From Devosia ginsengisoli (lineage in GTDB: Bacteria; Pseudomonadota; Alphaproteobacteria; Rhizobiales; Devosiaceae): DNA of 64,000 bases. Positions 10,731 through 44,298 of the stretch are shown in pieces. Each line of letters starts with the position of its first letter. Position 1 is the first letter of the stretch. The translations under genes and the position numbers were made by a program. The stretch is from assembly GCF_024707105.1 (NCBI RefSeq), contig NZ_JANQAJ010000011.1:195488-259487 (forward strand). The letters run 5' to 3'. The notes under the pieces were generated by a model that saw only the letters and a list, made by a program, of their open reading frames with translations, did no database searches and was not told where the DNA came from.

Positions 10731-11654
10731 ATGGAGCTTCCGGACAAGATCGTCGAGGGAAAGGTTGTCCTGGTGACGGGGGCCGGGCGCGGCATCGGCA
10801 AGGAAATCGCTCGCATGATGGCGCGGCAGGGCGCCAAGGTCGTGGTCAACGACCTGGGTGTCGAAGTCGGCGGAACGGGCGCGAATGAAAGCGTCGCCGA
10901 ACAGGCCGCAGCCGAGATTCGCGCCGAAGGCGGCGAGGCCGTCGCAAATGCCGACAGCGTCTCCGACTGGGACGGCGCGCATCGCATGGTTCAGACCGCA
11001 ATCGACGCGTTCGGCCGCATCGACTGCGTGGTCAACAATGCGGCGATCCTGCGCGACACCATCTTTCACAAGATGGAAAAGGCCGACTGGGATTTGTCGG
11101 TCGGCGTCATCCTCACGGGCAGCTTCTATGTCAGCAGGGCGGCCGCAGCGCATTTCCGCAAGCAGGAATCGGGCGCTTTCGTCCATATCAGCTCCACGTC
11201 GGGCCTCATTGGCGGCGTCGGGCAGGCCAATTACGGCGCAGCCAAGATCGGCCTGCAAGGGCTGTCAAAGGCCATCGCGCTGGACATGAAGCGTTTCAAC
11301 GTGCGCTCCAATGTGGTGGCGCCCTCGGCCTTCACCCGCATGACCGAGTCCATTCCGACCGAAACCGAAGAGCAGAAGCAGCGCGCCGCCAACCGGCGGA
11401 CGATCGCGCCGGAAAAGAACGCTCCCATTGTGGTCTACCTGGCCAGTGACGCCGCCAGCCATGTGACCGGGCAGGTCTTCTATACACGTGACAACGAACT
11501 GTTCCTGTTCAACCAGATGCGCCCGATCCGGCATGCGCATACCGCCGAAGGCTGGACCCCGCAGGCCATTGCCCAGCACGTCATGCCCGTCTTCGAGCCG
11601 GCTTTCATGCCGCTCGATCGCACGCGTGACGTGTTCACGTCGTATCTGCCGTGA
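10731..11654 (+). CDS. SDR-family oxidoreductase, probable 3-hydroxyacyl-CoA dehydrogenase (MFE-2 dehydrogenase-domain-like)
   Basis: ORF 10590..11654; start moved to MELPDKIVEGKVVLVTGAGRGIGKE (ATG 10731, RBS AAGGGGAGAG). Catalytic YGAAK. Long C-terminal extension. Confidence 0.85.
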   Translation: MELPDKIVEGKVVLVTGAGRGIGKEIARMMARQGAKVVVNDLGVEVGGTGANESVAEQAAAEIRAEGGEAVANADSVSDWDGAHRMVQTAIDAFGRIDCVVNNAAILRDTIFHKMEKADWDLSVGVILTGSFYVSRAAAAHFRKQESGAFVHISSTSGLIGGVGQANYGAAKIGLQGLSKAIALDMKRFNVRSNVVAPSAFTRMTESIPTETEEQKQRAANRRTIAPEKNAPIVVYLASDAASHVTGQVFYTRDNELFLFNQMRPIRHAHTAEGWTPQAIAQHVMPVFEPAFMPLDRTRDVFTSYLP

Positions 11655-13807
11655 GTCGCGCCATGAACCAGGTTGCCGCGGAAACCATGGGTAACGAGAC
11701 GCGTGCCGTCGATCTGTCGCGGCTGTTCGATCCGCGCGCCATCGCGGTGGTTGGCGCGACAGAGTCGAGCCGGGCCGTCGGCGGCCAGCCGATGCACTAT
11801 CTCACCACCTATGGCTATGAAGGCGAGGTATTTCCGGTCAATCCGAACCGAGAGACGGTGCTTGGCCGCAAGTGCTATCCCACGCTGGCGGATATACCAT
11901 CCGGTTGTGATGTCGTGCTGATCGCGATCGCGGCGCGCCTGGTGCCCGACGTGATCCGGCAAGCCGGCGCCAGAGGCATTCCTTTTGCGGTCATCCTCTC
12001 CTCGGGCTTCCGCGAGGCCGGGGACGAGGGCAAGGCCATCGAGGCCGAACTGATCGCCGCCATCAAGGAAACCGGAATTCGCGCCGTCGGTCCCAATTGC
12101 ATGGGCGTGCTCAATATTCCAAAGAGGGTTCATAATGGTTTCGGGCAGGGCTTCGGCGTGAAGGACTATTCCGTCGGACCTGTGGCCATGGCCACGCAGA
12201 GCGGCGGCTATGGCTTTACGCTGGTGCGCAATGCCAGCCGCGCCGGGACCGGGTTCAACTATATCGCCTCGGTCGGCAACAGCGTCGACCTCAACGTTCT
12301 CGATTTCATCGACTATTTCCTCGACTGCGACGACGTGAAGGTGGTCACCGCCTTTATCGAGGGCGTTTCGGATGGTCGGCGCCTGCTGGAGCTGGGGCGC
12401 AAGGCGCTCGAGCGCAACAAGCCGATCCTCGTCTGGAAGGCAGGCAATACCGCGGCTGGTCAGAAGGCCGCCGCATCGCACACGGCCAGCCTGGCCAGCA
12501 GCTACGCGCTCTATCAGGCGGCATTCCGTCAAGGCGGCTATGTCGAGGTTGACGATTACGAAGATCTCGTCGACCTGGCCAAGGCCTTTCTCGCCGGAAC
12601 GCTGCCGCGCGGCGACCGCGTCGGGCTGGTGTCCGGTTCTGGCGGGGCAGGGGTCATTGCCTCGGATCGCTTCATGCAGGCCGGCCTGCAATTGCCCGAA
12701 TTTTCCGCAACCACCAAATCCGTATTGCGCGACATGCTGCCGCCGCTCGCCGGAACCGGCAATCCGGTGGACATTTCGGGGCAGAACACCAAGGACGGCA
12801 AGAGCCTGTCCAATGCTGCCGCCGAAGCGGTGCTCGCCGACGAAAATATCGACATGGTGATGGTGCGCTCCGGCCAGACGACCGGCAGTATCGAAGCGGC
12901 GCAGTCCATCATCGATATTGCGCGCGAGGCCGGCAAGCCGGTGCTCGTCGCGACGGTCGCGGAGGATCACCTGCCTGCCAAGGCGCTGTTGGACGCTGCC
13001 GGTCTGCCGTGGTTCCTGACGGTCGGCCGGGCAGCGACTGCCGCGCGGGCGCTGGCCGATTTCTCGATGCGCCAGCAGAAATGGGCCGCTCGCCCTCGGG
13101 CGATCCAGAGGCCAGTGGGCCGTGCCGCGCTGTCATTCCCTGACGGGGAAACGTTCCTCAGCGAGCGGGCGTCGCGCGATGTGCTGGCCCAATATGGCAT
13201 CCCGCTTGTCCGCCAGGAATTCGTCCCGGCCGACGCGGTGGACAGGTTCAGTTTGCAGGACCTGGCTTTCCCGGTCGTGGTGAAGGTCAATTCACCCGAT
13301 ATTCCGCACAAGAGCGAGGCGGGAGCGATCCGCGTCAATCTCACGACTCTGGAAGCGGTACGGTCGGCGGCGCGGGAGGTGATCGCGGCGGCGCGAGCCT
13401 ATGTTCCTGACGCTCGTATCGACGGGGTGCTGGTGCAGGAAATGGCCAAGGGAACCGAACTGCTGCTCGGAGCGGCCGACGATGCCTGTTTCGGGCCGAT
13501 CGTCCTGTTTGGCCTGGGCGGTATTTTCGCCGAGGTCATGGCCGACGTCGTCTACAGGTTTGCCCCCTTCGACAAAATGTCGGCGCAAGACATGCTCACC
13601 GAGATCAAGGGCGTGAAGCTGCTTCAGGGCTATCGGGGGCAGGCGGTGGCCGACCTCGATGCGCTGGCCAATATCGTGATGCGGCTGGGCTGGCTCATGA
13701 GCGACTATAGGGAAGCCATAGAGAGCATTGATATCAATCCAATTTTCGTAAATGGCGGCACCATTCTTGCCGCGGATGCCCTCATCGCGCTCAAGGGCAG
13801 GGGGTAG
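11651..13807 (+). CDS. ADP-forming acyl-CoA synthetase (acetate--CoA ligase family; CoA-binding + ligase-CoA + ATP-grasp domains fused)
   Basis: 718 aa. PRAIAVVGAT CoA-binding start, GPNCMGV, C-terminal ATP-grasp region (FPVVVKVNSPDIPHKSEAGAIRVNL). GTGA overlap with the SDR stop. Confidence 0.85.
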   Translation: MSRAMNQVAAETMGNETRAVDLSRLFDPRAIAVVGATESSRAVGGQPMHYLTTYGYEGEVFPVNPNRETVLGRKCYPTLADIPSGCDVVLIAIAARLVPDVIRQAGARGIPFAVILSSGFREAGDEGKAIEAELIAAIKETGIRAVGPNCMGVLNIPKRVHNGFGQGFGVKDYSVGPVAMATQSGGYGFTLVRNASRAGTGFNYIASVGNSVDLNVLDFIDYFLDCDDVKVVTAFIEGVSDGRRLLELGRKALERNKPILVWKAGNTAAGQKAAASHTASLASSYALYQAAFRQGGYVEVDDYEDLVDLAKAFLAGTLPRGDRVGLVSGSGGAGVIASDRFMQAGLQLPEFSATTKSVLRDMLPPLAGTGNPVDISGQNTKDGKSLSNAAAEAVLADENIDMVMVRSGQTTGSIEAAQSIIDIAREAGKPVLVATVAEDHLPAKALLDAAGLPWFLTVGRAATAARALADFSMRQQKWAARPRAIQRPVGRAALSFPDGETFLSERASRDVLAQYGIPLVRQEFVPADAVDRFSLQDLAFPVVVKVNSPDIPHKSEAGAIRVNLTTLEAVRSAAREVIAAARAYVPDARIDGVLVQEMAKGTELLLGAADDACFGPIVLFGLGGIFAEVMADVVYRFAPFDKMSAQDMLTEIKGVKLLQGYRGQAVADLDALANIVMRLGWLMSDYREAIESIDINPIFVNGGTILAADALIALKGRG

Positions 13808-13810
13808 TCG

Positions 13811-14668
13811 ATGCCGCTCGATTACGAGGCGCTCAAGGCCTATCGCATTCCACAGACCGAGATGGCGCTGACCAAGCGGGATACGATGCTCTACGCCCTG
13901 GGAATCGGACTGGGGGCGGATCCCACCGACGAGCGCCAGCTTCGTTTCGTCTACGAGAAGAACCTGCTGGCCGTTCCAACCATGGCAACCCTGATCGCAG
14001 CGCCCCATGCCTGGATCAGGAAGGCCAATGTCGGTTCCAGCGGCAAGAGCGTTCACGCCGGTATTAGCTTCCGGCTGCACCGCCCTATCCCGGTCGAAGG
14101 CAGCTTCCGCAGCGAAAACAGTGTCGATGAAGTGGTCGACAAGGGCGAGGGCAAGGCCGCGCTTGTGACGACACGGCGGCGGGTGTTCTCAGAGCAGGAT
14201 GACGCTCTGATCTTCGAGATTCTATCGACCAGCATGCAACGTGGCGATGGTGGTTTCGGCGGTCCCTCGACGTCGTCGGCGCCGGCCCACGAGGTTCCAG
14301 GCTCGCCGCCGGACATGGTCGTGGACATGCCCACTCTGCCGCAGCAGGGGCTGATCTACCGCTTGAGCGGGGACTACAACCCGCTGCACGCCGATCCGGA
14401 GCATGCCCGATCGAACGGCTTTCCGCGCCCGATCCTGCACGGCCTCTGCACCTATGGCATTGCCGGACATGCGCTGCTGCGCGCCCTATGCGACTACGAA
14501 CCGGCGCGGCTTGTGGCGATGAGCGCACGGTTTTCCAGGCCGGTCTATCCCGGCGACACACTTCAGATCCAGATATGGCAGCGCGGCGATACGGCCCATT
14601 TCCGCTGCCTTGTGCCAGCCCGCGACAACGAGGTCGTGCTCGATTTCGGACATGTCGAACTCGCCTGA
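13811..14668 (+). CDS. MaoC-like (R)-specific enoyl-CoA hydratase, double hot-dog (MFE-2 hydratase-2-like)
   Basis: 285 aa. NPLHADPEHARSNGFPRPILHGLCTYG hydratase-2 motif in the C-terminal half. Confidence 0.85.
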   Translation: MPLDYEALKAYRIPQTEMALTKRDTMLYALGIGLGADPTDERQLRFVYEKNLLAVPTMATLIAAPHAWIRKANVGSSGKSVHAGISFRLHRPIPVEGSFRSENSVDEVVDKGEGKAALVTTRRRVFSEQDDALIFEILSTSMQRGDGGFGGPSTSSAPAHEVPGSPPDMVVDMPTLPQQGLIYRLSGDYNPLHADPEHARSNGFPRPILHGLCTYGIAGHALLRALCDYEPARLVAMSARFSRPVYPGDTLQIQIWQRGDTAHFRCLVPARDNEVVLDFGHVELA

Positions 14669-14699
14669 CGGCGGAACAGAACTACGGAGGAGCAGAACG

Positions 14700-16079
14700 A
14701 TGGCGGCAGTAGAAGTGGCCCGAACCGAAGGGGTTGGGGAAGGTCATCGCGGTGAAAAGCTGGCGAAATTCGTCGCCGCGGCTCCCGGCCGGGACTATCC
14801 GCCCGAAATCATCGCGGCGGCGAAGGGGGCGCTGGTCGATTTCGTCGGCGTCACCATCGGTTCGTTCGACGAGCCGGCAGCCAAGGCCACGCGGGCCGTT
14901 GCCGAGGCATGGGGCGTGCCGGGGAAGGCGCAAATATTCGGCGCCGGCACCACCAATGCGGCCATGGCGGCATTGGTCAACGGCACGATGGCGCATTGCC
15001 AGGATTATGACGACACCCATATCGGCGGCTCGGGACATATCGGGGCGCCGGTCTGGTCGGCGGCCCTGGCGGTTGCCGGCGAGCGGGGGCTCGACGAGAA
15101 GGCGGCGCTGTCCGGCTTCATCACCGGTTTCGAGGTGATGGCGCATCTGGGGACGGGCGGCATAAGGGGCGTGGGGCGTAACCTGCAGCAGTGCGGGTTT
15201 CATCCCACGGGTGTTCATGGCGTCGTGGGCGCTGCGGCGGCCAGCGCCGCCATGCAGGGGCTGGACGAGGAGCAGTCGGCCAATGCGCTCGGCGCCGCGG
15301 CCACATCGGCGTCAGGATTCGTCGCCTCGTTCGGCAGCGATTCAAAGCCCTATCATGCCGGCCGCGCAGCGTGGAACGGCATCCTGGCGGCTGATCTGGC
15401 GGCCAATGGTTTCACGGCGGCCAAGGGGCTGTTCGAGCGCGAAAAGGGCATGCTGGCTGCGCTCATCCAGGATAATCGCGCCGAAATTCCGAATATCGAC
15501 TTCGATGATGGCTGGGAGCTGCTGAACAATGGCTACAAGCCCTTCGCCTGCTGTCGCGCGACGCATGCCTCCATCGCCGCGGCGCACAAGCTGACGGCCC
15601 AGGTCAAGGGCCGCAAGGTCAAGCGCGTGACTTCGAAAGTGCACTACAATGCGCCGTTCAGCGCGGGCAAGACCAACCCGCAATCGCCGCTCGAATGCAA
15701 ATTCTCGGTCGCTTTCTGCATCGCGGCAGCGCTCGAGGGCTATTCTATGGTCGGGACCGATTTCACCGAGCATATGCTGCGCGACCCGGCCGTGCAGGCC
15801 ATCCTGCCCAATGTGGAGCTATTGCCGCAGCGCGAGCAGCCGCAATTCGAGGCCTATCTCGATGTCTGGCTGGAAGATGGCACGCATCTGCAGTCCGAGA
15901 CCAAGCTCTTTCTGGGCCATCCGCAGAACCCGATGAGCCCGGAGCAGGTCCACGCCAAGTTCATGTCACTGGTCGAGCCGCGGCTGGGCGCCGAAAAGGC
16001 CGAAAGGCTGCTGGCTACGCTCTACCGTTTCGACGAACCGGGTGCCCTTGCCGAAACCATGGCGCTGGTTCGCGCCTGA
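14700..16079 (+). CDS. MmgE/PrpD-family protein, paralogue 1
   Basis: ORF 14610..16079; start moved to MAAVEVAR (ATG 14700, RBS GGAGGAG). Family strings LVDFVGVTIGS, HCQDYDDTH, GFHPTG, SKPYHAGRAA. Confidence 0.85.
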   Translation: MAAVEVARTEGVGEGHRGEKLAKFVAAAPGRDYPPEIIAAAKGALVDFVGVTIGSFDEPAAKATRAVAEAWGVPGKAQIFGAGTTNAAMAALVNGTMAHCQDYDDTHIGGSGHIGAPVWSAALAVAGERGLDEKAALSGFITGFEVMAHLGTGGIRGVGRNLQQCGFHPTGVHGVVGAAAASAAMQGLDEEQSANALGAAATSASGFVASFGSDSKPYHAGRAAWNGILAADLAANGFTAAKGLFEREKGMLAALIQDNRAEIPNIDFDDGWELLNNGYKPFACCRATHASIAAAHKLTAQVKGRKVKRVTSKVHYNAPFSAGKTNPQSPLECKFSVAFCIAAALEGYSMVGTDFTEHMLRDPAVQAILPNVELLPQREQPQFEAYLDVWLEDGTHLQSETKLFLGHPQNPMSPEQVHAKFMSLVEPRLGAEKAERLLATLYRFDEPGALAETMALVRA

Positions 16080-16094
16080 CCTACGGAGAATAGT

Positions 16095-16997
16095 ATGTCC
16101 ACCGATTGGCTGGATGGTGCGGCGCAGGGCCGTGCCGATCGTGCCGCCGTCCTGCGCCAACTGATCGCGCGCAAGCAGAGCGTGGCTGTTCCCGGAGCGG
16201 CCGATGGCATGAGCGCGCAGCTGGCGCGCGATGCCGGGTTTGAGGCGCTCTATCTTTCGGGTGCCGCCGTTTCTGCCTCGATGGCCCTGCCTGACCTGGG
16301 CATGCTGACGCTCGAGGATGTGACGCGTAAAGCCCGCGAGGTCGTCCGTGCATCCGGGCTCCCGCTGATCGTGGACGCCGATACCGGTTTCGGCGAGGTG
16401 CTCAATATCATGCGCGCGGTGCGCGAGCTGGAAGAGGCCGGGGCGGCCTGCATTCAGATTGAAGATCAGGTATTTCCCAAGAAGTGCGGGCATCTCAATG
16501 ACAAGTCGGTCGTGCCCGTCGAGGATATGTGCCGCAAGATCGCCGCTGCGCGGCAGGCGTCCTCGGGACTGCTGATCTGCGCGCGCACCGATGCGGGCAC
16601 CGCGGATTTCGACGACGCGATCCGGCGTGCCAACCGTTATGTTGCGGCCGGTGCAGATGTGATCTTCGTCGAAGCGCTGCATTCGATCGAGGCCATGCGT
16701 CGGGCGCGCGCCGAAATAGCGGCGCCGCTGCTGGCCAACATGACCGAGTTCGGGCGTACGCCGCAGACCTCGCTCCAGACATTCAACGAACTGGGCTACG
16801 AACTCGTCATCTACCCCGTCTCGGCCGCCCGCGCTGCGTGGCGCGCCAGCAAGTCGGTCTATGAGGCTATCAGACGCGATGGCGAGGTCGGAACGACCAT
16901 CGACGCCATGATGACGCGGGCCGAGCTCTACCAGACCATCGGCTATTACGACTACGAGGCGCTCGACGCCAAGATCGTCAAAACCGTTCTCGAATAA
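16095..16997 (+). CDS. isocitrate lyase/PEP mutase-family C-C lyase (methylisocitrate lyase / dimethylmalate lyase-like)
   Basis: 300 aa. PGAADGMSAQLARDAGFEALYLSGAA, IVDADTGFG, IEDQVFPKKCGHL signature. Confidence 0.85.
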   Translation: MSTDWLDGAAQGRADRAAVLRQLIARKQSVAVPGAADGMSAQLARDAGFEALYLSGAAVSASMALPDLGMLTLEDVTRKAREVVRASGLPLIVDADTGFGEVLNIMRAVRELEEAGAACIQIEDQVFPKKCGHLNDKSVVPVEDMCRKIAAARQASSGLLICARTDAGTADFDDAIRRANRYVAAGADVIFVEALHSIEAMRRARAEIAAPLLANMTEFGRTPQTSLQTFNELGYELVIYPVSAARAAWRASKSVYEAIRRDGEVGTTIDAMMTRAELYQTIGYYDYEALDAKIVKTVLE

Positions 16998-17017: not shown

Positions 17018-18418
17018 ATGGGTCACATCGGCTCGGGCAACCCCTATACGCGCGCAGTTGCCGAATTCGTTTCCGGGCTTCGCTACGAAGATATTCCCGA
17101 AACGGTTCGCGAGCGCCTCAAGCTGCTCATTCTCGACTCGCTCGGTTGTGCGCTCTACGGGGCCAACCTGGAATGGTCGCATATTCTCCACAAGACGCTG
17201 GGCGCCGTCGATACCAGCAGTTCGGCAGCCATCTGGGGGACCAACAGGCGGATTTCGACGCCGCACGCGGCTTTGATCAACGGCACGCAGGTCCAGGGTT
17301 TTGAACTCGATGACGTGCATCGCGTCGGTGTCATGCATGTGGGGGCGGTAACGCTTCCCGGACTGGTTGGCATTGCAGAAGCGCATCGGAACCTCTCCGG
17401 ACGCGAGTTCCTCACGGCAGCGCTGGCGGGTTACGAAGTCGGCCCGCGCGTCGGCATCTGCATGGGGCAAGAGCATATCGGGCAGGGCTGGCATTCCGGT
17501 GCGACGCTGGGCGTGTTCTCGTCGGCCGCCGCAGCAGCCCGCGCACTGAGCCTCGATGCCGACAGGACCGTCCATGCCCTAGGCATTGCCGGCACGCAAT
17601 CTGCCGGGCTGATGGCGGCGCAGTTCGGCGCCATGGTCAAGCGCATGCATGCCGGCCGCTCGGCACAGAGCGGGCTCTATGGTGCGCTTCTGGCCGCCAA
17701 CGGCTTTACCGGTATCATCGATGTGTTCGAGGCGCCGTATGGCGGCTTTGCCACGACCTTTTCGCGATCGGACGATCGTTTCAACCTGGATGCGCTGACG
17801 AGTGGGTTGGGGGAAACGTTCGAGACCATGCGCATCGCGCTCAAGTTCTACTCCTGCGTGGGCAGCAACCACACCACGCTGGATTCCATCCGCGCCATCC
17901 AGCAGCGCCGCCCGTTTACGGTGGATGAGCTGGAGAAAATCGTGGTTCGAGGCTCGCAGGTCACCGTGGATCACGTGGGCTGGGAATATCGGCCGGAGGG
18001 CATAACTTCGGCGCAGCTCAACCTGCCATATTGCGTGGCGACGCTGCTGCTGGAAGGCGATGTGTTCGTCAACCAGTTCTCCGATGAATTGGTGGCGGAT
18101 CGCCAGCGCATGGACCTGCTCAAGCGGGTACAGGTCGTGCATGATCCGGAAATCACCGCGAAAGGCTCGACCTTCCGCCATATGGTCAAGGTCGAGGTTC
18201 ATCTCAGGGATGGCAGCGTGCATCATGAGGAGCGTGAGGCGCCGCGGGGCAGCGAAAAGAGCTTTGCCAGTGCCGATGATATTGTCGAGAAGTTCAAGAA
18301 ACTCGCCAGCAGCGTCATGCCGTCGGATCAGCAGCAGCGCCTTGTCGATGCAGTGCTCAACCTCGAAGACCTCGACGATGCGCGATTGTTGACTGACCAA
18401 CTGGTCGTTCGCGGCTGA
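17018..18418 (+). CDS. MmgE/PrpD-family protein, paralogue 2
   Basis: 466 aa. LLILDSLGCALYG, GFELDDVH, GWHSGATLG, VKRMHAGRSAQSG. Confidence 0.85.
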   Translation: MGHIGSGNPYTRAVAEFVSGLRYEDIPETVRERLKLLILDSLGCALYGANLEWSHILHKTLGAVDTSSSAAIWGTNRRISTPHAALINGTQVQGFELDDVHRVGVMHVGAVTLPGLVGIAEAHRNLSGREFLTAALAGYEVGPRVGICMGQEHIGQGWHSGATLGVFSSAAAAARALSLDADRTVHALGIAGTQSAGLMAAQFGAMVKRMHAGRSAQSGLYGALLAANGFTGIIDVFEAPYGGFATTFSRSDDRFNLDALTSGLGETFETMRIALKFYSCVGSNHTTLDSIRAIQQRRPFTVDELEKIVVRGSQVTVDHVGWEYRPEGITSAQLNLPYCVATLLLEGDVFVNQFSDELVADRQRMDLLKRVQVVHDPEITAKGSTFRHMVKVEVHLRDGSVHHEEREAPRGSEKSFASADDIVEKFKKLASSVMPSDQQQRLVDAVLNLEDLDDARLLTDQLVVRG

Positions 18419-18424
18419 TATGCT

Positions 18425-28464: not shown

Positions 28465-28506
28465 ATTGCGCCGGCTTGTCGGCGTTTGGCGAAAGAATCA
28501 GACCAA

Positions 28507-36836: not shown

Positions 36837-36837
36837 C

Positions 36838-38004
36838 ATGCAGGGGCCTCTTACCGGCATCAAGGTCGTCGACCTCACACAGATCTACAACGGTCCATAT
36901 GCCACGTTTCTCATGGCGATGGCCGGTGCCGAAGTCATCAAGATCGAGCCGCCCGGCGGGGAACATACGCGACGCCGGCAGCGCGATGGCGGCGGCGCGC
37001 ATATCCCTCACGCCATGCTCAATTCGGGCAAGCACTTTGTGGTACTCGACCTCAAACAGGAGGAGGGCAAGGCGGCGCTGACCCGGCTCATCGAGCAGAG
37101 CGACGTGCTGGTCGAAAACTTCCGCCCCGGAGTGATGGCGCGGCTCGGCTTCTCCCGCGAGCATGTCAAGACGCTCAATCCGCGGCTCATCTATGCCAGC
37201 AGTTCGGGGTTCGGCACGACCGGCCCGTATCGTGACTATCCGGCCATGGACCTTGCCGTGCAGGCGATGAGCGGCGTGCTCAGCGTAACCGGCTATCCGG
37301 ACAATCCGCCGGTGAAAGCAGGCCCCGCCATTGCCGACTTCAATGCCGGCGTGCACCTCTATGGTGCCATTGCCACGGCCCTGCTTGACCGCGAGCGGAC
37401 GGGCACCGTGCGTGCCGTGGAAGTCGCCATGTTCGAGGCGATCTACCCGGCGCTGGCCTCCAATCTGGGTTTGATGGGCGGCATCAACAAGGACCGGTCT
37501 CCCCGGACGGGAAACCGGCATGGCGGCCTGTCGATCAGTCCCTACAACGTCTACGAGTGCAAGGACGGCCATTGCGCCATCCTGGCCAATAACGAGCATC
37601 AATGGCATGCGCTGGCGCGCTATTTCGACCAGGAATGGGCCATCACCGATCCGCGCTATGCGACCATGTATGAGCGGGTCAAGCGCATCGAGGAGGTCGA
37701 TGAACTGGTTGGGGGCTGGGCGCGCGCACAGACCAAGGATCAGCTTTTTGCCGGCCTCATCGCTGTAGGCGTGCCGTGTTCGCCGGTTCGCGAACTGAGC
37801 GAGGTCATGCAGGACGAACACCTTCATGCCCGCAAAGCGCTCGTCGAGATCGACCACCCGATCTATGGCGCCATGACCATACCGACCAGCCCGCTGGTAT
37901 TCGAGGGCGTGCCCCGAGACATACGCTGGCCGAGCCGCAAGCTGGGCGAGGACCAGGCCCTGATCGAACAACCCGAACTTGTGCTGGGGGGCTCCGAGCC
38001 ATGA
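36838..38004 (+). CDS. family III (CaiB/BaiF) CoA-transferase, paralogue 2
   Basis: ORF 36799..38004; start moved to MQGPLTGIKVVDLTQIYNGPYATFLMAMAGAEVIKIEPPGG (ATG 36838). ENFRPGVMARLG. Confidence 0.88.
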   Translation: MQGPLTGIKVVDLTQIYNGPYATFLMAMAGAEVIKIEPPGGEHTRRRQRDGGGAHIPHAMLNSGKHFVVLDLKQEEGKAALTRLIEQSDVLVENFRPGVMARLGFSREHVKTLNPRLIYASSSGFGTTGPYRDYPAMDLAVQAMSGVLSVTGYPDNPPVKAGPAIADFNAGVHLYGAIATALLDRERTGTVRAVEVAMFEAIYPALASNLGLMGGINKDRSPRTGNRHGGLSISPYNVYECKDGHCAILANNEHQWHALARYFDQEWAITDPRYATMYERVKRIEEVDELVGGWARAQTKDQLFAGLIAVGVPCSPVRELSEVMQDEHLHARKALVEIDHPIYGAMTIPTSPLVFEGVPRDIRWPSRKLGEDQALIEQPELVLGGSEP

Positions 38005-39217
38005 CCATGCAATTCAATCACAATGCCGAAATTGCCCTGAGCGGCGAAGCTGACATCCCGGCCGCGACACGCGTCATATATGGACCGGACAAGGCGCTGA
38101 GCGGCGTGCTCGAGGAGCTTGCCGCGGCCGGTGCGAGCCGGGCTTTCATCATCACCGGCAAGAGCATGGGGGCAAGCCATCTGGTTGCCCGGCTCAAGGA
38201 AGGCCTGGGCGCCAATTGCTGCGGACATTTTGCGGCGATGGGAGAACATTCTCCCCGCTCGACGGTGCTGGAGGCGGCGCGTCAGGCCCGTTCCGCCGGC
38301 GCCGACCTGCTGGTAGGCATCGGTGGCGGCAGCACGATCATCGGCACCAAGGGTGTCGCGCTCGTGCTCGGGGAGGGGAAGACCTCGACGCCTTGCGGGC
38401 GCATTACGACTACCAGACCCGCAAGATCACCGCGCCCAAGCTGACCCGGGCCAAGCCGCCGGTCATCGCTATTCCGACAACCCTGTCGGCGGGCGAGTTC
38501 AGTTCCGCCATGGGCATTACCGATGACGCCACGGGCGCCAAGGATATCTTCATCGATCCCAAGGTGGTGCCGCGGGCGGTGATCTTGGATCCGGTGATGA
38601 CCACGGCGACCCCGGCACGGCTGTGGTCGTCCACCGGCATCAAGGCGCTGCATAATGCCGTCGAACGCTATTACGCGCTCAATGCCAATCCCTTTATCCA
38701 GGGTCTGTGCCTTGAGGCGACGCGCAACGTTTTCCGCTACCTCAAGCGCTCGGTTGATGACTCGAATGACCTGGATGCGCGCGGTCGCTTGCAGTTCCTG
38801 AACTGGATGACGGCATTCGGCGCCGGCAAGGGGGGTATCGGCCTCGGGCACGGCATCTGTCATCAGTTGGGTGGGGTCTGCGACGTACCTCATGGGATCA
38901 GCGGCTGCATCGTGCTGCCGTTCATGATGGAGTTCAACCGCCCGGCCACGCTCGAAAAGCAGCGGCAGATCGCCATGGCCATGGGGTTCGAGGATACGGC
39001 CGCCAGCGACGAGGAGGCCGCAATCTGGGCCGAACAGCAAGTTCGTGGCCTGATCGCATCGCTGGGTTTGCCGGCTCGGTTGCAGGAAGTTGGCGTGAAG
39101 CGCGAGGACCTGCCCAAGGTGGCGGAAATGACCTTGCGTGACCGTACCCTGTCGCCAACGCCGCGCCCGCCGCGCGATGCGGACGAGATATTCACGCTAC
39201 TGGAAAGGATGTTCTAG
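38001..39217 (+). pseudogene. iron-containing alcohol dehydrogenase / maleylacetate reductase-like, frameshifted (or sequencing error)
   Basis: The N-part comes from ATG 38001 in ORF 37776..38444 (MTMQFNHNAEI...GIGGGSTIIGTKGVALVLGEG). The C-part is in ORF 38216..39217 (EDLDALRAHYDYQ...AIPTTLSAGEFS...GHGICHQLGG). The frames join by adding one G to the G4 run 38375..38378. Confidence 0.8.
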
Positions 39218-39321: not shown

Positions 39322-40404
39322 ATGAAACACTCTTATATGACTGCCGCAGCAATCAGCATCGCTGCTTTGATGTCTACAGGCGCCTATGCCCAGGAGGTCG
39401 ACTTTTCCGGCAAGACCATCGAACTGATCGTTCCCTACGGGGAAGGGGGCGGCTCGAGCGTCCATGCTCGCCTGCTGGCTCCGCTTCTGGAGCAAGAGCT
39501 TCCGGGCCATCCCACCATCATCATCCGCAATATCGAAGGCGGTGGATCGGTGCGCGGGATCAATGAGTTTGCAGCGCGCGCCAAGCCGGATGGCCTGACC
39601 ATCGCCGCGCTGGCAACGGGTACCTACTACAGCTACATCCTGGGCGAAGAGACCGTCCAGTATCCGCTGGCCGATTTCATTCCGTTCCTGACCTCGCCCT
39701 ATGGCGTGGTTTCCTACGGCCTCACCAGCTTCGGGCTCACCGGCGATCCGGAGCATGACGTGAAGTACCTGCAGGAGCATAAGGCGGTCTATGTCGGCGA
39801 CGGTCCGGCTGATGCGGACATGCCGGTGCTGTATTGCTTTGACCTGCTCGGGATCGAGCTGAACGGCGTCTTTGGCGTGTCTCGCGGCGAGTCCCGCCAG
39901 GCGTTCATGCGCGGCGAATCCCAGGTCAATTACGACAACATGGCCTCGTGGGACAACGAGTTGAAGCCGATGGTCGATGACGGAACCATGGTGACGCTGT
40001 TCACGATGGGCTTCCAGAACGAGAACGGCGAAGTTGTTCGCGACCCGGTGCTGCCCGATACCGCCACATGCCCCGAACTCTATGAGATCGTGTATGGCGA
40101 GCCCATGTCCGGCGTGGAAAAGGAAGTCTACGAGAACATGTTCGCCATTCGCATGGTGACGGCCAAGACGCTGGTTCTGCCTGCAGGAACGCCGGACGAC
40201 ATCGTCCAGACCTACCAGGCGGCCATCGAACGGGTCGTCGCCCGTCCTGAACTGCAGTCTGCGGCTGCCCAGCTCGAGCTCGGCGGCTATCCGCAGGGCA
40301 CCGGCGAGGTCGCAATCGAGGGTCACCGCACTGCTTCGGTCATGAGCCCTGAGGCCAAGGCCGAGCTGGACCGCTGGCTCAAGGATGTGTGGAATATCGA
40401 CTAA
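39322..40404 (+). CDS. tctC: TctC/Bug-family tripartite tricarboxylate transporter substrate-binding protein
   Basis: 360 aa. Signal peptide MKHSYMTAAAISIAALMSTGAYAQ. IELIVPYGEGGGSSVHARL...IIIRNIEGGGS...NEFAARAKPDG. RBS GGAGGAG. Confidence 0.85.
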   Translation: MKHSYMTAAAISIAALMSTGAYAQEVDFSGKTIELIVPYGEGGGSSVHARLLAPLLEQELPGHPTIIIRNIEGGGSVRGINEFAARAKPDGLTIAALATGTYYSYILGEETVQYPLADFIPFLTSPYGVVSYGLTSFGLTGDPEHDVKYLQEHKAVYVGDGPADADMPVLYCFDLLGIELNGVFGVSRGESRQAFMRGESQVNYDNMASWDNELKPMVDDGTMVTLFTMGFQNENGEVVRDPVLPDTATCPELYEIVYGEPMSGVEKEVYENMFAIRMVTAKTLVLPAGTPDDIVQTYQAAIERVVARPELQSAAAQLELGGYPQGTGEVAIEGHRTASVMSPEAKAELDRWLKDVWNID

Positions 40405-40527
40405 GATCGATTTGCTCTGGCGGGCTGAGGTCCGCCAGAGTTTTCCTTTTGAAGCGCGCTAACCGATCCGGCAACCACCTCAGAGTGGCGGGCGGTAGGC
40501 TGCGCCAAGCTAGCATTGGGCCGCGAA

Positions 40528-42516
40528 ATGGATCTTTCGGCACTGCAATACGCTCTCCCGGCACTGTTGACGCTGGTGACAGGGCCACATCTGCTCTACC
40601 TGATTTTCGGCGTCGCTTTGGGTATGGTCTTCGGCGTGTTGCCGGCCATCGGCGGGCTGGCCGGGATCGCCCTTGTCCTGCCGTTCCTCTTCGGCATGGA
40701 CCCTGGTCCCGCCTTGGCGATGATGATCGGCCTGGCGGCCGTCCCCGCGACATCGGACACGTTCAGTTCGGTGCTGATCGGGGTGCCCGGGGGCGCGGGC
40801 TCGGCAGCGACGGTTATCGACGGTTTTCCGATGTCGAAGCGCGGGGAGGCCGCTCGTGCGCTGACTGCGGCCTTTTTCAGCTCGCTGATCGGTGGCCTCT
40901 TTGGTGCATTCGTACTCAGCTTTGCCTTCGTGGTCGCCACGCCCATCCTGATGGCGATCGGCTTTTCCGAACAACTGATGCTCATCATTCTCGCACTGAC
41001 CCTGGTGGGCATGCTGACCGGGCGCAATCTCGCCAAGGGTCTGGCATCGTGCTGCCTTGGTCTGCTGATTGGATCGATCGGTGCCGCGACCGCCACTGGC
41101 GAACAGCGCTTTGCCTTTGGCACGATCTACCTGATGGATGGCATTCCGCTGGTTGTCGTGGCTCTGGGGGCGTTCGCGCTGCCGGAAATCATGGACGTGC
41201 TGCGCAAGCGTCAATTTATTGCGGGCGATGCACCCTTGGGACATGGATGGCTCCAGGGCTTCCGCGACGTCATCGACAATATCTGGCTGGTCTTGCGCTG
41301 TTCAGGCGTCGGGGCGGTCATGGGCATGCTGCCTGGCATGGGCGGCGGTGTGGTCGGCTGGGTGGCCTATGCCCACGCGGTCCAGACCGCCAAGGACAAG
41401 AGCCAGTTCGGCAAGGGTGACGTCCGGGGTGTGATCGGGCCGGAATCCGCCAACAATGCCAAGGATGGCGGCGATCTTATCCCAACCCTGTTCCTCGGTG
41501 TGCCGAGCAACGGCACCATGGCGCTGTTCCTCGTTGGCCTGACAGTGATCGGGCTCCAGCCGGGTCGCGCCATGGTGACCCAGCATCAGGATATCGTCTA
41601 CCTGATCATTTGGTCGCTCGCGATCGCCAACATTCTGGGCACCGTGATCAGCATCCTTCTGGCGCGTCCCATCGCCAAAGTGACGGCGATCCCGTTCATG
41701 CTGGTGGCGCCGTTCATTCTCGTGGCGATCTTCTTCTCGGCCTATCAATCCAAGTCCGACTGGGGCGATATCATTTCCCTGCTCGTGGTTGGGGTTGTGG
41801 GCCTGTTCATGAAGCGCTTCGGTTGGTCGCGCGCGGGCCTGCTGATCGGCCTCGTCATGTCGCGTAACCTGGAGGCTGCGCTTTATCGCACCGCGCAGGT
41901 CTATGGCCTCGAACTCTTCCTGCGGCCGCTGGCGCTGGTCATCCTGGGGATTGCCGCGCTGATGCTGTTCGTGACGATACGGGCCAAGACTCGCGTCTCG
42001 AGTGAAGGCGATGCATCGCCTGAGCTTTCCATGCCGACGGTCAATCTGCAGTTCGGCTTCCTGCTGGTGCTCATTGCATTTGTGGTCGCCGTGGCGCTCG
42101 ACGTGAGTGACAACACGTTCCTTGCCAAGGTTTTCCCACTTAGCGTGGCCGGCCTGGCGCTGATCTTCCTCACCATTGCCGGCATCGGTATGGTCAGGCG
42201 GAGCAAGGCGCCTGGCCTGATCTTCGACGCCGATCTCAGCGATGACCCCGAGACAGACGGGTCCAAGCCGTTGCTTCCCTTCATGGCACTGATGGCAGCA
42301 CTCCCGCTATCCATCGCGCTTCTGGGATTCTGGCTGGGCTCGGTGGTCTACATGTTCTTGTTCCTGTGGCTGGTGGCACGCAAGTCCGTCCTCTACAGCG
42401 CCATCAACACCGCGCTGTTGGGCCTGTTCTTCTACGTGATGGTCGACCTGATCAATGCCAGGTTCGCACCGGGCCTGCTCCAGCAACTGGTCGATCTGCC
42501 CTATCCGTTAGGATAG
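40528..42516 (+). CDS. TctA-family large permease fused to a C-terminal TctB-like small-subunit region
   Basis: ORF 40516..42516 (TTG 40516 or ATG 40528). The first ~500 aa are TctA-like (GVLPAIGGLAGIALVLPF..., VIDGFPMSKRGEAARAL, GPESANNAKDGGDLIPTLFLGVP). The last ~165 aa add 4-5 hydrophobic helices. No separate tctB ORF lies between tctC and this gene. Confidence 0.75.
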   Translation: MDLSALQYALPALLTLVTGPHLLYLIFGVALGMVFGVLPAIGGLAGIALVLPFLFGMDPGPALAMMIGLAAVPATSDTFSSVLIGVPGGAGSAATVIDGFPMSKRGEAARALTAAFFSSLIGGLFGAFVLSFAFVVATPILMAIGFSEQLMLIILALTLVGMLTGRNLAKGLASCCLGLLIGSIGAATATGEQRFAFGTIYLMDGIPLVVVALGAFALPEIMDVLRKRQFIAGDAPLGHGWLQGFRDVIDNIWLVLRCSGVGAVMGMLPGMGGGVVGWVAYAHAVQTAKDKSQFGKGDVRGVIGPESANNAKDGGDLIPTLFLGVPSNGTMALFLVGLTVIGLQPGRAMVTQHQDIVYLIIWSLAIANILGTVISILLARPIAKVTAIPFMLVAPFILVAIFFSAYQSKSDWGDIISLLVVGVVGLFMKRFGWSRAGLLIGLVMSRNLEAALYRTAQVYGLELFLRPLALVILGIAALMLFVTIRAKTRVSSEGDASPELSMPTVNLQFGFLLVLIAFVVAVALDVSDNTFLAKVFPLSVAGLALIFLTIAGIGMVRRSKAPGLIFDADLSDDPETDGSKPLLPFMALMAALPLSIALLGFWLGSVVYMFLFLWLVARKSVLYSAINTALLGLFFYVMVDLINARFAPGLLQQLVDLPYPLG

Positions 42517-42520
42517 CTCC

Positions 42521-42550
42521 GATGTGGCGGCGGGTATCCGCCGCCACATC
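42521..42550 (+). terminator. strong hairpin GATGTGGCGGCGG-gtat-CCGCCGCCACATC just after the tctA-B stop
   Basis: Perfect 13-bp stem with a 4-nt loop, read directly. No T tract follows, so it could be a terminator, attenuator or mRNA stabiliser. Confidence 0.45.
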
Positions 42551-42606
42551 CAATGCGAGCTGTGCTCTGGCCAGCTTGGCAACCAACTCATATCTGGAGG
42601 AAAGCC

Positions 42607-44298
42607 ATGTCTGGCGGGGTGCAGCATGTGATTGCAGGAGCGGTGGACGGGGCAGGGGAACAGCCAGTCTACGCGGCTCTGGCGGAGGCTTTTGTGGCGG
42701 AGGGCGTCGACCATCATTTCCTGTTGATGGGGCACGGTCAGATGCTTTGGGCCATTGCCATGGACAAACTGCCCGGCATGCGAAGCATCGATGCCCGGCA
42801 CGAACACTGCGCCGTCGCCGAGGCGATAGGCTACCATTTTGCCACAGGCAAGGTCGGCGTCGCTTCGGTGACCTGCGGCCCGGGCTTTACCCAGACGATG
42901 ACGGCGTTGACCTCGGCGGCGCAGGCCCGGGTTCCTCTGGTGATCCTGGCGGCCGACAGCCCGCTGAATCAGCGCTGGTATAACCAGTCTGTGGACCAGG
43001 CTGCACTGGCCAGGGCCACCGGCTCTCATTTCATCGCTGCCCACAGTCCCGCGCTGATGCGTGATTATGTGCAGGAGGCGTTCTACACGGCACACTTCGA
43101 GCGGCGACCGGTCGTGCTCAGCATTCCCTATGACCTGCTCAAGCTCTCCATCTCCACGCAGAAGCCTTACATTCCCTCGACCACCCTCCTGCCGCAGGTT
43201 GGCCCCATGCCGCCGAACCCCGCCGATATCGACCGGCTGGCGGAGCGGCTGAGGACGGCGCAGCGGCCGATTTTACTGGCGGGCAGGGGGGCTGTCCGGT
43301 CCGGGGCAGGGCCTGCTATCGAGGCGCTGGCCGATACCACCGGGGCCTTGTTGGCCACGAGTCTGCCGGCGCGGGGGCTGTTCGATCGCTCATCTTTCTC
43401 CGTCGGCGTGGCGGGCGGCTTTGCCAGCCAGGTTGCTGTCCAATGTTTCGCGGAAGCCGACATGGTCGTCGCCATCGGCGCCAGCCTGACTCATTACACG
43501 GTCGATGGTGGTGGGCTTTTCCCCAATGCCTTCACTGCCCAGATCGATGAAAACCCGCTCGGCATGCGCCATGGACGGCAGGCTGCAGACATCTATGTGC
43601 GGGGCGATGCCGCGCTGGCTGCGCAGGCCCTCATGGATCACCTGAAGGGGGGAACGGCTGCGCGATTCCGGAGCGATGAACTGGCCCGGCGCATCGTCGA
43701 AACACCACCCGATGCAACGCCTTACGAGGTCGAGCCGGGCTTGCTGGATCCTCGTGAAGTGGTCAAGGAAATCGACCGCGTCATACCCAAGGACTGGGAT
43801 ATCGTCAGCGGCACCGGACATTCTTCCTATTTCTACACCCATCTCCGCGACCGCCGACCCGAACAGTTCCATGTGCTGCGCGAATTCGGCGCCATCGGCA
43901 GCAGCCTGGCGATGGCGATCGGGGTGGCGGCAGTCCGCAATAACGGCAAGGTGCTGTTGCTCGATGGTGATGGCGGTCTGATGATGCATATCCAGGAACT
44001 CGAATCCATCCAGCGCCAGGGCATCAGGCTGGTCATATGTGCGCTCAATGACGGGGGCTTCGGCGCCGAAATCCACAAGCTGCGCAAGATCGGGGTGGAC
44101 GAAAAGATGGCCACATTCGGCCGGCCGGACTTTGCAGCCATTGGCAAAGGCTTCGGGCTGGATGTCGCGACTGTCGACGGGCCGGGCCAGATCGAGCGAG
44201 CCTTTGCGCAATATGACCCGGAAGGGCGATCCGCGATCTGGGACGTGCACATCTCGACACGTGTCTCGTCGCCGCGCGGACGCAAGCAGCCGAACTAG
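42607..44298 (+). CDS. thiamine-diphosphate-dependent enzyme, paralogue 2
   Basis: ORF 42553..44298; start moved to MSGGVQHV (ATG 42607, RBS GGAGGA). Shares GKVGVASVTCGPGFTQ and ARHEHCA with 3680..5353. TPP motif GDGG...NDGGFG. Confidence 0.8.
   Translation: MSGGVQHVIAGAVDGAGEQPVYAALAEAFVAEGVDHHFLLMGHGQMLWAIAMDKLPGMRSIDARHEHCAVAEAIGYHFATGKVGVASVTCGPGFTQTMTALTSAAQARVPLVILAADSPLNQRWYNQSVDQAALARATGSHFIAAHSPALMRDYVQEAFYTAHFERRPVVLSIPYDLLKLSISTQKPYIPSTTLLPQVGPMPPNPADIDRLAERLRTAQRPILLAGRGAVRSGAGPAIEALADTTGALLATSLPARGLFDRSSFSVGVAGGFASQVAVQCFAEADMVVAIGASLTHYTVDGGGLFPNAFTAQIDENPLGMRHGRQAADIYVRGDAALAAQALMDHLKGGTAARFRSDELARRIVETPPDATPYEVEPGLLDPREVVKEIDRVIPKDWDIVSGTGHSSYFYTHLRDRRPEQFHVLREFGAIGSSLAMAIGVAAVRNNGKVLLLDGDGGLMMHIQELESIQRQGIRLVICALNDGGFGAEIHKLRKIGVDEKMATFGRPDFAAIGKGFGLDVATVDGPGQIERAFAQYDPEGRSAIWDVHISTRVSSPRGRKQPN

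Follow-up and report, generated by a model that had tools for sequence, protein, structure and literature searches.

Introduction

To our knowledge, only about five activities are known for proteins that belong to the MmgE/PrpD family. In one survey, this family returned 50,344 hits in 21,713 species (PMC12290011), and a succinate substructure is common to all of its known substrates (PMC12290011). A paper published in 2025 found that the PrpD-family protein of an itaconate cluster is a (S)-(R)-methylsuccinate isomerase, which acts on the free acid only (PMC12290011). The characterized methylsuccinate isomerases are mostly betaproteobacterial or gammaproteobacterial, and their genes always stand beside that of their dehydrogenase (PMC12290011). 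Here we describe a locus with four PrpD paralogues (PrpD_A to PrpD_D) in a 64,000-nucleotide stretch of Devosia ginsengisoli DNA (contig NZ_JANQAJ010000011.1, positions 195,488 to 259,487; hereafter, the window). The unit delimited by Pfam scans, 3680-44298 of the window, spans ~40 kb and ~32 genes, and begins and ends with genes for thiamine-diphosphate (TPP) enzymes, TPP_1 and TPP_2. We assign a probability of roughly 0.55 to its being one GntR-controlled catabolic regulon for one or more polycarboxylic acids built on a substituted succinate skeleton. This reading draws on gene content, conserved co-location, a shared operator and purifying selection.

The closest known systems include tcuRABC of Salmonella and FumE/F/G of Sphingopyxis MTA144 (PMC3136697). 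Like tcuRABC, the window encodes a TcuA-like FAD dehydrogenase with the fumarate-reductase fold and a predicted dedicated carboxylate transporter. In contrast to tcuRABC, it lacks the TcuB iron-sulfur partner and TcuC, it encodes EtfAB and ETF-QO, and its TcuA-like protein fails the TIGR02485 model. Furthermore, the TcuA-like gene is always found with PrpD paralogues and a PrpB-like lyase, which are needless for tricarballylate use via cis-aconitate. With the 2-methylcitrate cycle (prpBCD), the locus shares a PrpB-like lyase with a KKCGH loop, encoded beside an MmgE/PrpD protein. However, it lacks PrpC and PrpE, and for PrpD_B the nearer relative is cis-aconitate decarboxylase rather than PrpD. 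The window also encodes a putative importer of the tripartite tricarboxylate transporter (TTT) type, which implies an external substrate, unlike prpBCD.

The itaconate/methylsuccinate cluster (PMC12290011) resembles the locus in having a PrpD isomerase for the free acid, a family-III CoA-transferase, an ETF-using acyl-CoA dehydrogenase (ACAD), a hydratase and a C-C lyase. The locus differs from it in that the hydratase is a crotonase and the lyase is of the 3-hydroxy-3-methylglutaryl-CoA (HMG-CoA) lyase type (HMGL-like), in its four or five PrpD genes and many more enzymes, and in being alphaproteobacterial. The iminodisuccinate (IDS) epimerase of Agrobacterium tumefaciens BY6 (PDB 2hp0) is similar to PrpD_D, with 376 bits over 415 residues, but the window cluster has no gene for a C-N lyase of the lyase_1 family. 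IDS is a synthetic compound. For the CoA-dependent enzymes, the pimeloyl-CoA dehydrogenase PimCD and the peroxisomal MFE-2 and SCP-x proteins of beta-oxidation serve as reference systems. A 778-residue ACAD of the window resembles PimD plus PimC, with the two subunits fused; an MFE-2-type hydratase-2 is encoded two genes from a short-chain dehydrogenase/reductase (SDR), and there is an SCP-x-type thiolase. Unlike in the reference systems, these proteins score far under the equivalog cut-offs, and the set is embedded in the predicted polycarboxylate regulon. A literature search found no published study of the cluster, which matches no characterized pathway: an organic-acid catabolic regulon is a familiar kind of system, and this variant of it is uncharacterized.

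Results and discussion

The gene set recurs together in other genera

Open reading frames (ORFs) were picked among many shadow ORFs by third-position G+C, and the chosen ORFs were scanned against Pfam. One genome per species was scanned with an alignment of PrpD_B orthologues, which gave at least 526 relatives; 80 loci were fetched (cited by number, as in L084), and the window proteins were mapped onto them by tblastn. The Pfam scans recovered every gene family that had been listed in a previous, sequence-only reading of this DNA. That reading had placed the left edge of the cluster at 10731, which is corrected here to 3680, since ETF-QO, the second CoA-transferase and the second TPP enzyme lie to the left of 10731. 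This left end is a minus-strand operon of ETF-QO, CaiB_1, SBP_1 and TPP_1, three of whose proteins have paralogues at the right end (TPP_1-TPP_2, 53% identity; SBP_1-SBP_2, 45%; CaiB_1-CaiB_2, 32%).

In Silicimonas algicola, orthologues of nearly every gene of the unit (53-88% identity) form one contiguous cluster of ~39 kb, in which the order of the modules is shuffled. The two loci that cover it overlap on one contig (L084, 1-18783; L030, 17528-38892), and they carry an extra paralogue, PrpD_x, making five PrpD genes. Large parts of the block are found in Wenxinia marina, which matches L030. On the metagenome contig L085, the TcuA-like gene and PrpD_C are directly joined to the PrpD_D operon and to the genes for MFS, TPP_2 and LysR, which shows that the LysR/PrpD_D module on the right is part of the same whole. 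The version in Terrihabitans soli is compact: ETF-QO is on the minus strand and the rest is on the plus strand, in the order GntR, PrpD_A, PrpB-like, PrpD_B, TcuA-like, PrpD_C, EtfB, EtfA, SDR, a fourth PrpD gene, a TctC-like gene and TctA; there is no ACAD in this locus. The recurrence of this gene set as a group in other genera goes beyond chance. The earlier proposal that these genes make up one functional set agrees with their being contiguous again in S. algicola and present in large part in W. marina, L085 and T. soli. Four PrpD genes in one cluster are indeed present in the window, but this is not unique to it: there are five in S. algicola and four in T. soli, so that the unusual concentration of PrpD paralogues is a conserved one.

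Around one-quarter of the PrpD_B orthologues sit in a recurrent three-part core. Its first part is a TcuA-like gene (55-85% identical) with PrpD_C and/or PrpD_x; the second is a gene for a TctC-like binding protein with a fused TctA-TctB gene; and the third is a divergent GntR gene, after which come the PrpB-like gene and PrpD_B. No CoA gene is near this core in Halomonas, Octadecabacter, Microvirga, SAR116, Chelativorans, Paraburkholderia or metagenome-assembled genomes (MAGs) of Burkholderiales. The T. soli locus likewise holds TcuA-like, PrpB-like, PrpD_B and PrpD_C genes and the TTT genes without a CoA gene. Elsewhere, the core often adds an OCD/mu-crystallin gene after TctA (L006, 1136-2260; L089, 845-1924; L030, 3542-4627), an AbrB-type (PF05145) membrane-protein gene after PrpD_B (L006, 11438-12505; L089, 11411-12487), and a second ICL-like lyase gene with PrpD_x. 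About one-half of the PrpD_B orthologues in the 80 scanned loci stand alone, mostly in Xanthobacteraceae MAGs. Just past the core of Halomonas salipaludis there is a reverse-transcriptase (RVT_1) gene, possibly of a group II intron or retron (L006, 12734-14038).

An operator-like box is shared by the operons

A palindrome noticed by eye, TGGTATACCA, occurs with at most one mismatch 8 times in the window, as compared to 0.29 copies expected, and all of these copies lie within 9663-34858. With at most two mismatches there are 26 copies, as compared to 7.9 expected. Six of the copies with at most one mismatch are in promoter gaps: between ETF-QO and GntR (9663), before the SDR operon (10658), between MBL and the TcuA-like gene (19527 and 19712), between LysR and PrpD_D (30841) and before ACAD_s (34849). 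Copies at 30094 and 34624 are inside genes. Two-mismatch copies are present twice in the thiolase/MFS gap (28357 and 28447) and once in the CaiB_1/SBP_1 gap (6712).

The box is found at the equivalent promoters of T. soli, S. algicola, W. marina and L085 (loci L002, L030, L045, L084 and L085); 82 other loci, taken as the background, have 0.12 copies per 10 kb. In the box-keeping loci where a GntR gene was found (T. soli, S. algicola and L085), the encoded protein is 67-74% identical to that of the window, while the core-only clusters lack the box and have a GntR protein of 34-40% identity. The GntR/FCD protein is probably the binder of the TGGTATACCA boxes, as judged from these sequence comparisons. 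The presence of a shared box before the operons, with its conservation across genera, points to a single GntR regulon, for which the box is the predicted operator. That the block had been read as one unit fits well with this arrangement, since the common box also precedes the LysR/PrpD_D operon. The divergent arrangement of LysR and PrpD_D is itself kept in S. algicola, L085 and L090.

These observations bear on whether the block is merely a patchwork, in which unrelated catabolic operons of expanded families (PrpD, CaiB, ACAD, ECH and TctC) lie side by side, as in Bug-rich proteobacterial genomes. Consistent with a patchwork, distant PrpD_D homologues (51-54%) are found in Betaproteobacteria in other mixed PrpD/CaiB/HMGL/ACAD/TctC clusters (L086 and L087), about one-half of the PrpD_B orthologues are solitary, and there are two regulators, GntR and LysR. 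However, the whole inventory is contiguous in S. algicola, with large parts in W. marina and L085, despite reshuffling, and one box, kept across genera, is common to the operons, including the LysR/PrpD_D promoter. We therefore regard a patchwork as very unlikely. Apart from passes of the TcuA, PrpB and HMG-CoA-lyase subfamily models, no module reached the equivalog of a characterized pathway, and the modules share the operator.

The cluster is under purifying selection

Five single-base indels that are private to this assembly shift the frame of SBP_1, MBL, EtfA (a compensating pair, -1 at 26322 and +1 at 26514) and Fe-ADH (Table 1). The MBL gene is intact, with 346 codons, in three related assemblies; EtfA is intact (310 residues) in L001 and L090, and Fe-ADH (400 residues) in S. 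algicola. A second strain, CP042304 (89% DNA identity), has other frameshifts, in its TcuA-like and ACAD genes. All of the covered genes are intact in GCA_040393585 (97.8% DNA identity) and in SRR28201129, and dN/dS between the two lineages was 0.015-0.14 for 11 genes. The intact sister copies and low dN/dS thus indicate that the pathway is under purifying selection. Errors of sequencing or assembly, or else lesions of very recent origin, would account for the five indels.

If the cluster were decaying and non-functional in this strain, that would account for these frameshifts and for the separate ones in CP042304, but this explanation is improbable, because the same genes are intact in the two sister data sets at low dN/dS and some of the indels lie in short homopolymer runs, as sequencing errors do. 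Moreover, the excess of frameshifts in the cluster over its flanks was not significant (~0.1, by a rough proportion of lengths). We also considered a pseudogenized relic, which is unlikely given the same intact copies and dN/dS values.

Four divergent PrpD paralogues

The four MmgE/PrpD proteins had been described as mutually divergent, and their pairwise identities are 24-30%. All four score well above the Pfam cut-off of 32.1 bits, with 181-226 bits for MmgE_PrpD_N and 66-124 bits for MmgE_PrpD_C. The four window proteins keep Asp98, His107, Lys208 and Lys276 (numbered as in PrpD_B), which do not vary among six divergent paralogues, and each also retains a GWH/GFH histidine; correspondence with the published list of residues that bind the dicarboxylate or stabilize the enolate was judged by eye. 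PrpD_B scored 47.7 bits with the NCBIfam PrpD model, below its cut-off of 950, and PrpD_A, PrpD_C and PrpD_D had no NCBIfam match at E<=1e-10. Therefore, none of the four is a canonical PrpD.

PrpD_B had 6003 relatives in a homologue search and is 100% identical to a D. ginsengisoli protein; its orthologues are 66-76% identical across classes, and its closest solved structure is cis-aconitate decarboxylase. PrpD_A and PrpD_C are weakly nearest to IDS epimerase among solved structures, and PrpD_A is also near to B. subtilis 'IRG1'. Orthologues of PrpD_A are 76% identical in T. soli and 55-58% in Rhodobacterales. In the window, as in T. soli and L085, the PrpD_C gene comes directly after the TcuA-like gene; its orthologues are 46-65% identical. 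PrpD_D matched PDB 2hp0 with E 3e-111 and ~45-50% identity (estimated by eye), and its orthologues are 57-63% identical in S. algicola, W. marina, Corticibacterium and L085.

The similarity of PrpD_D to IDS epimerase raises the question of whether the cluster breaks down amino-polycarboxylates (iminodisuccinate, ethylenediaminedisuccinate or an opine), with PrpD proteins that epimerize N-substituted aspartates and a TcuA-like protein that acts like L-aspartate oxidase on a C-N bond. The FAD_binding_2 fold does include L-aspartate oxidase, the TcuA-like protein has a weak NadB match, and a gene of the OCD/mu-crystallin (imine-reductase) family is present in the Chelativorans, Halomonas and Rhodobacterales cores. 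Scans of the window, however, revealed no aspartase/fumarase-type C-N lyase, OCD gene, aminotransferase or deaminase, and most of the cluster represents carbon-chain CoA chemistry, which makes this alternative quite unlikely.

More distant homologues of PrpD_D, in L086 (a Betaproteobacteria MAG) and L087, are encoded in clusters with two to three PrpD genes together with CaiB, HMGL, ACAD and TctC genes. Catabolic clusters with multiple PrpD genes are a wider, unstudied theme.

TcuA-like, PrpB-like, ETF and transport proteins

The TcuA-like flavoprotein, which has the fumarate-reductase fold, passed NF006130 (575 bits; cut-off, 369) and failed TIGR02485 (275 bits; cut-off, 372.55). Its orthologues are 70-85% identical, and its dN/dS is 0.016. 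The PrpB-like protein narrowly passed TIGR02317 (369.4 bits; cut-off, 354.4), scored below the cut-off of NF008455 (286 as compared to 353), and keeps the catalytic K-[KR]-C-G-H loop as KKCGH. By its equivalog score and this loop, it meets the description of a putative methylisocitrate-lyase-type enzyme. Of the 80 scanned loci, at least 11 have the PrpB-like gene next to PrpD_B, with identities of no less than 56%.

The ORFs scanned in 3680-44298 include no TcuB-type protein with Fe-S/CCG domains, no TcuC and no citrate-synthase-type PrpC. The T. soli locus is likewise without a TcuB-type partner and has EtfAB and ETF-QO instead; the window ETF-QO is 70% identical to the T. soli gene product at the same position, and EtfB is 72% identical to that of the T. 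soli gene just after PrpD_C. Because a TcuB is missing, and because EtfAB follows the TcuA-like gene and PrpD_C in T. soli in a locus without an ACAD, ETF and ETF-QO are the likely electron route.

Passes of NF006130 (TcuA), TIGR02317 (PrpB) and the HMG-CoA-lyase subfamily model might mean that known pathways are present in disguise, that is, tricarballylate use, the 2-methylcitrate cycle and ordinary beta-oxidation of the fatty-acid or leucine type. Such a combination is difficult to reconcile with the lack of TcuB-type, TcuC and PrpC proteins, the failed TIGR02485 model, the PrpD_B score of 47.7 bits as compared to 950, and the lack of NCBIfam matches for the other three PrpD proteins. Moreover, no acyl-CoA carboxylase, which the leucine route needs, is present, and in many genomes the TcuA-like, PrpB-like and PrpD_B genes are found as a group that lacks prpC. 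We consider it rather improbable that known pathways explain the cluster.

Two TctC proteins had been named in the window. Both substrate-binding proteins are present, but they are only distantly TctC-like. SBP_2 scored 19.3 bits with Pfam TctC (cut-off, 27) and matched Bug/TctC structures in the PDB at E ~1e-8; SBP_1, the C-terminal 60 residues of which are in another frame, has orthologues of 66-67% identity in the Rhodobacterales loci. The TctB match in the C-terminal segment of TctA (its residues 87-214) is weak, at 22.7 bits as compared to a cut-off of 29.1, and the counterpart TctA proteins in other genera have 653-661 residues, similar in length to the 666 of the window protein. A fused TctA-TctB with binding proteins that fall below threshold looks like a distinct TTT subfamily.

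CoA-dependent and accessory enzymes

No specific NCBIfam name or equivalog was reached by the crotonases, the ACADs, the CaiB transferases, MaoC, the SDR or the TPP enzymes, and all NCBIfam matches of the ADP-forming acyl-CoA synthetase were below cut-off. TPP_1 matched the actinobacterial 2-hydroxyacyl-CoA lyase 7pt1 and plant acetolactate synthase in the PDB at similar scores, and its orthologues in S. algicola and W. marina are 64-67% identical. Those of TPP_2 (61-65%) adjoin the MFS gene in S. algicola and L085. The MaoC protein matched PDB entries 3khp and 1s9c, and S. algicola and W. marina have the SDR-ligase-MaoC-PrpD_A block in the same order, with 55-70% identity. The thiolase scored 689 bits with NF006010 and is 86% identical in S. 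algicola; the HMGL-like protein passed the NF004283 subfamily model (268 bits; cut-off, 246).

The fused ACAD resembles NCBIfam pimC and pimD at scores under cut-off. It could have been a frameshift artefact, which was ruled out by the finding of one ORF of 778-779 codons in two related assemblies (L090 and L091) and, for S. algicola and W. marina, which represent two Rhodobacterales genera, of a single tblastn alignment that runs across the junction. Steroid side-chain degradation was considered for the set of thiolase, DUF35, MaoC and double-ACAD proteins and was rejected, since there is no other steroid gene and the set is constantly associated with enzymes for polycarboxylates.

The PrpD_C gene is immediately next to that of the fused ACAD, and PrpD_D is in the same operon as ACAD_s; no Ict, Ich or Ccl equivalog was reached. 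In its logic, the PrpD_D-HMGL-ECH-ECH-ACAD-ECH-CaiB_2 operon corresponds part for part to the characterized cluster, which consists of the isomerase, Ict, methylsuccinyl-CoA dehydrogenase, Ich and Ccl (PMC12290011), and a ligase and a MaoC hydratase adjoin PrpD_A. The locus might therefore encode a non-orthologous itaconate/methylsuccinate pathway, for branched C5-dicarboxylates, yielding acetyl-CoA and pyruvate. We view this as unlikely for the cluster as a whole, because such a pathway needs ~5 genes rather than ~32 and could explain one operon, leaving the TcuA-like, PrpB-like, TPP, thiolase and PimDC-like genes unexplained. In addition, no protein reached the mesaconate or itaconate transferase models, and the characterized isomerases come mostly from other classes, always beside the dehydrogenase gene (PMC12290011).

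Table 1. Features of the Devosia ginsengisoli cluster, in order along the window (MBL, metallo-beta-lactamase fold; SBP, substrate-binding protein; ECH, crotonase family)
Feature	Position	Strand	Description and basis
TPP_1	3680..5398	-	Acetolactate-synthase / 2-hydroxyacyl-CoA-lyase-type thiamine-diphosphate enzyme; three TPP Pfam domains
SBP_1	5447..6588	-	Distant TctC-like binding protein; apparent frameshift near 5660
CaiB_1	6730..7920	-	Family-III CoA-transferase; Pfam CoA_transf_3, 409 bits
ETF-QO	7960..9630	-	ETF-ubiquinone oxidoreductase; Pfam Fer4_ETF_QO and ETFQO_UQ-bd
Box TAGTATACCA	9663..9672	.	ETF-QO/GntR gap
GntR/FCD regulator	9870..10565	+	Pfam GntR and FCD
SDR	10731..11654	+	Candidate 3-hydroxyacyl-CoA dehydrogenase; Pfam adh_short
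ADP-forming acyl-CoA synthetase	11651..13807	+	Pfam CoA_binding, Succ_CoA_lig and ATP-grasp_5
MaoC	13811..14668	+	Double hot-dog (R)-specific enoyl-CoA hydratase, MFE-2 type; Pfam MFE-2_hydrat-2_N and MaoC
PrpD_A	14700..16079	+	MmgE/PrpD paralogue; both Pfam domains
PrpB-like	16095..16997	+	C-C lyase, ICL/PEP-mutase family; TIGR02317 and KKCGH loop
PrpD_B	17018..18418	+	Strongly conserved orthologue group; both Pfam domains
MBL	18425..19460	-	Metallo-beta-lactamase-fold hydrolase; Pfam Lactamase_B; apparent +1 frameshift near 19305
TcuA-like	19740..21254	+	FAD dehydrogenase; NCBIfam NF006130
PrpD_C	21285..22679	+	MmgE/PrpD paralogue; both Pfam domains
Fused ACAD	22676..25012	+	Double acyl-CoA dehydrogenase, 778 residues; N half PimD-like (small subunit), C half PimC-like (large subunit)
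EtfB	25044..25793	+	Pfam ETF
EtfA	25816..26748	+	Out of frame from ~26322 to 26514 (-1/+1 pair)
DUF35	26745..27149	-	ChsH2-type OB-fold and zinc-ribbon protein; Pfam OB_ChsH2_C and zf-ChsH2
Thiolase	27155..28321	-	SCP-x-type thiolase-like protein; Pfam Thiolase_C_1
MFS_3	28486..29793	+	Transporter; Pfam; adjoins TPP_2 orthologue in S. algicola and L085
LysR regulator	29812..30741	-	Divergent from PrpD_D; Pfam
PrpD_D	30912..32276	+	Paralogue close to IDS epimerase; both Pfam domains
HMGL	32273..33217	+	HMG-CoA-lyase-like enzyme; Pfam HMGL-like
ECH_1 and ECH_2	33201..34726	+	Two crotonase-family proteins; Pfam ECH_1
ACAD_s	34895..36073	+	Acyl-CoA dehydrogenase, single domain set; Pfam; 84-88% identical in S. 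algicola and L085
ECH_3	36063..36836	+	Third crotonase; Pfam
CaiB_2	36799..38004	+	Family-III CoA-transferase; Pfam; 80-83% identical in S. algicola and L085
Fe-ADH	38007..39217	+	Fe-dependent alcohol dehydrogenase; apparent frameshift near 38378
SBP_2	39322..40404	+	Distant TctC-like binding protein
TctA	40516..42516	+	Fused TctB-like C-terminus; Pfam TctA, 392 bits; 666 residues
TPP_2	42553..44298	+	Second thiamine-diphosphate enzyme; Pfam

A proposed route for a substituted succinate

With one GntR-controlled regulon as the favored reading, a route may be sketched. The acid would be taken up by the TTT system, in which the fused TctA-TctB works with the two binding proteins that are distantly TctC-like. 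The free acid would then be the substrate of the PrpD paralogues: some would epimerize or isomerize it and so channel its stereoisomers into the route, with PrpD_D as the clearest candidate, and at least one would be a hydratase. The TcuA-like enzyme would desaturate the succinate moiety and pass electrons to the cluster's own EtfAB and ETF-QO, and the PrpB-like lyase would split the hydrated product into a 2-oxo acid and a carboxylic acid. By their families, the core enzymes would thus share one theme, namely desaturation, epimerization or (de)hydration by PrpD proteins and PrpB-type retro-aldol cleavage on a free-acid succinate skeleton.

The fragments may be finished in three ways. The two TPP enzymes and the CaiB transferases could act by decarboxylation or alpha-oxidation; oxalyl-CoA decarboxylase and 2-hydroxyacyl-CoA lyase systems are the model for such a pairing. 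A beta-oxidation set for branched or carboxylated chains would consist of the ligase, the fused PimDC-like ACAD, hydratase-2, the SDR and the SCP-x thiolase with DUF35. An HMG-CoA-lyase-type set of CaiB_2, ACAD, three crotonases and HMGL would parallel the methylsuccinate route. The sequence-only reading had proposed a multi-step route for tricarboxylic, dicarboxylic or branched acids, which is broadly supported, but its premise that the acids are first activated to CoA esters is probably wrong, because the core occurs without CoA genes and characterized relatives act on free acids.

Since tricarballylate needs no lyase and methylcitrate needs PrpC, the substrate is more likely to be another substituted succinate or tricarboxylate with several stereocenters. 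Several stereocenters would also explain the need for several epimerase-type paralogues. More tentatively, and with clearly less confidence than in the regulon itself, the four or five PrpD proteins might each have a new activity of their own (as epimerase, as hydratase or perhaps as decarboxylase) toward a single carboxyl-rich substrate, with the TcuA-type enzyme wired to ETF and ETF-QO and the PrpB-type enzyme carrying out the key C-C cleavage. The candidate substrates would then be 2,3-disubstituted, alkyl- or cycloalkyl-succinates or branched tricarboxylates, and PrpB-type cleavage would precede the CoA-dependent clean-up, being a ring-opening step if the substrate were alicyclic.

Several points weigh against a single regulon and the route drawn from it. 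With about one-half of its orthologues standing alone, PrpD_B need not be tied to the route, and the absence from the Devosia window of the OCD gene, the AbrB-type gene, the second lyase and PrpD_x means that the Devosia version may act differently from the other cores. The box was tested on the same window in which it had been found by eye, so that only its cross-species conservation is independent. The margin over the PrpB cut-off is a mere 15 bits, and TIGR02485 was failed, which qualifies both putative assignments. Should the five frameshifts be real, this strain would have no working EtfA, Fe-ADH, MBL or SBP_1. The substrate class, the reactions and the sequence in which they occur were inferred from family chemistry, and for the TPP enzymes, Fe-ADH, the MBL hydrolase and the MFS transporter the roles given are guesses.

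Because it is conserved, apparently co-regulated and in need of four or five PrpD proteins at once, the cluster offers a compact place to seek new activities of this family. It may also point to a class of polycarboxylic acids eaten by soil and marine Alphaproteobacteria, for which the predicted operator and the two binding proteins provide direct handles on inducer and substrate.

Genomic setting of the cluster

The block had been called an island, but it bears no compositional or mobile mark in the window. The G+C content is even (0.61-0.65 in the block as compared to 0.62-0.67 outside), no tRNA gene was found in the window, and Pfam scans detected no integrase, transposase or other mobility domain. 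Both flanks are ordinary chromosome, with ntrX, hfq, hflX and mazG on the left. On the right are a MAPEG gene, a MYG1-family gene, F420-ligase-like and luciferase-like genes and an iron-type ABC importer, followed by metG, holB, tmk, a PBP5-type carboxypeptidase gene and metH.

Identities of 80-88% to Rhodobacterales proteins suggest lateral transfer of the cluster. Together with the neighbors of the S. algicola copy, such high identities hint that the whole cluster was transferred. Up to 84-88% identity to proteins of a roseobacter and of a metagenome contig (L085) was seen for the thiolase, ACAD_s and CaiB_2; the S. algicola copy (L084/L083) has an SLFN-type helicase gene and a DUF2924 gene as neighbors. 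A search of plasmids for PrpD_B orthologues gave only paralogues of at most 43% identity, and therefore no well-studied replicon carries the cluster.

To the right of the cluster, a gene for a CofE-like F420-0:gamma-glutamyl ligase (47579-48379) lies between two luciferase-like monooxygenase genes, together with a FecCD-type ABC importer (46523-52217). F420-related genes are not common among Alphaproteobacteria.

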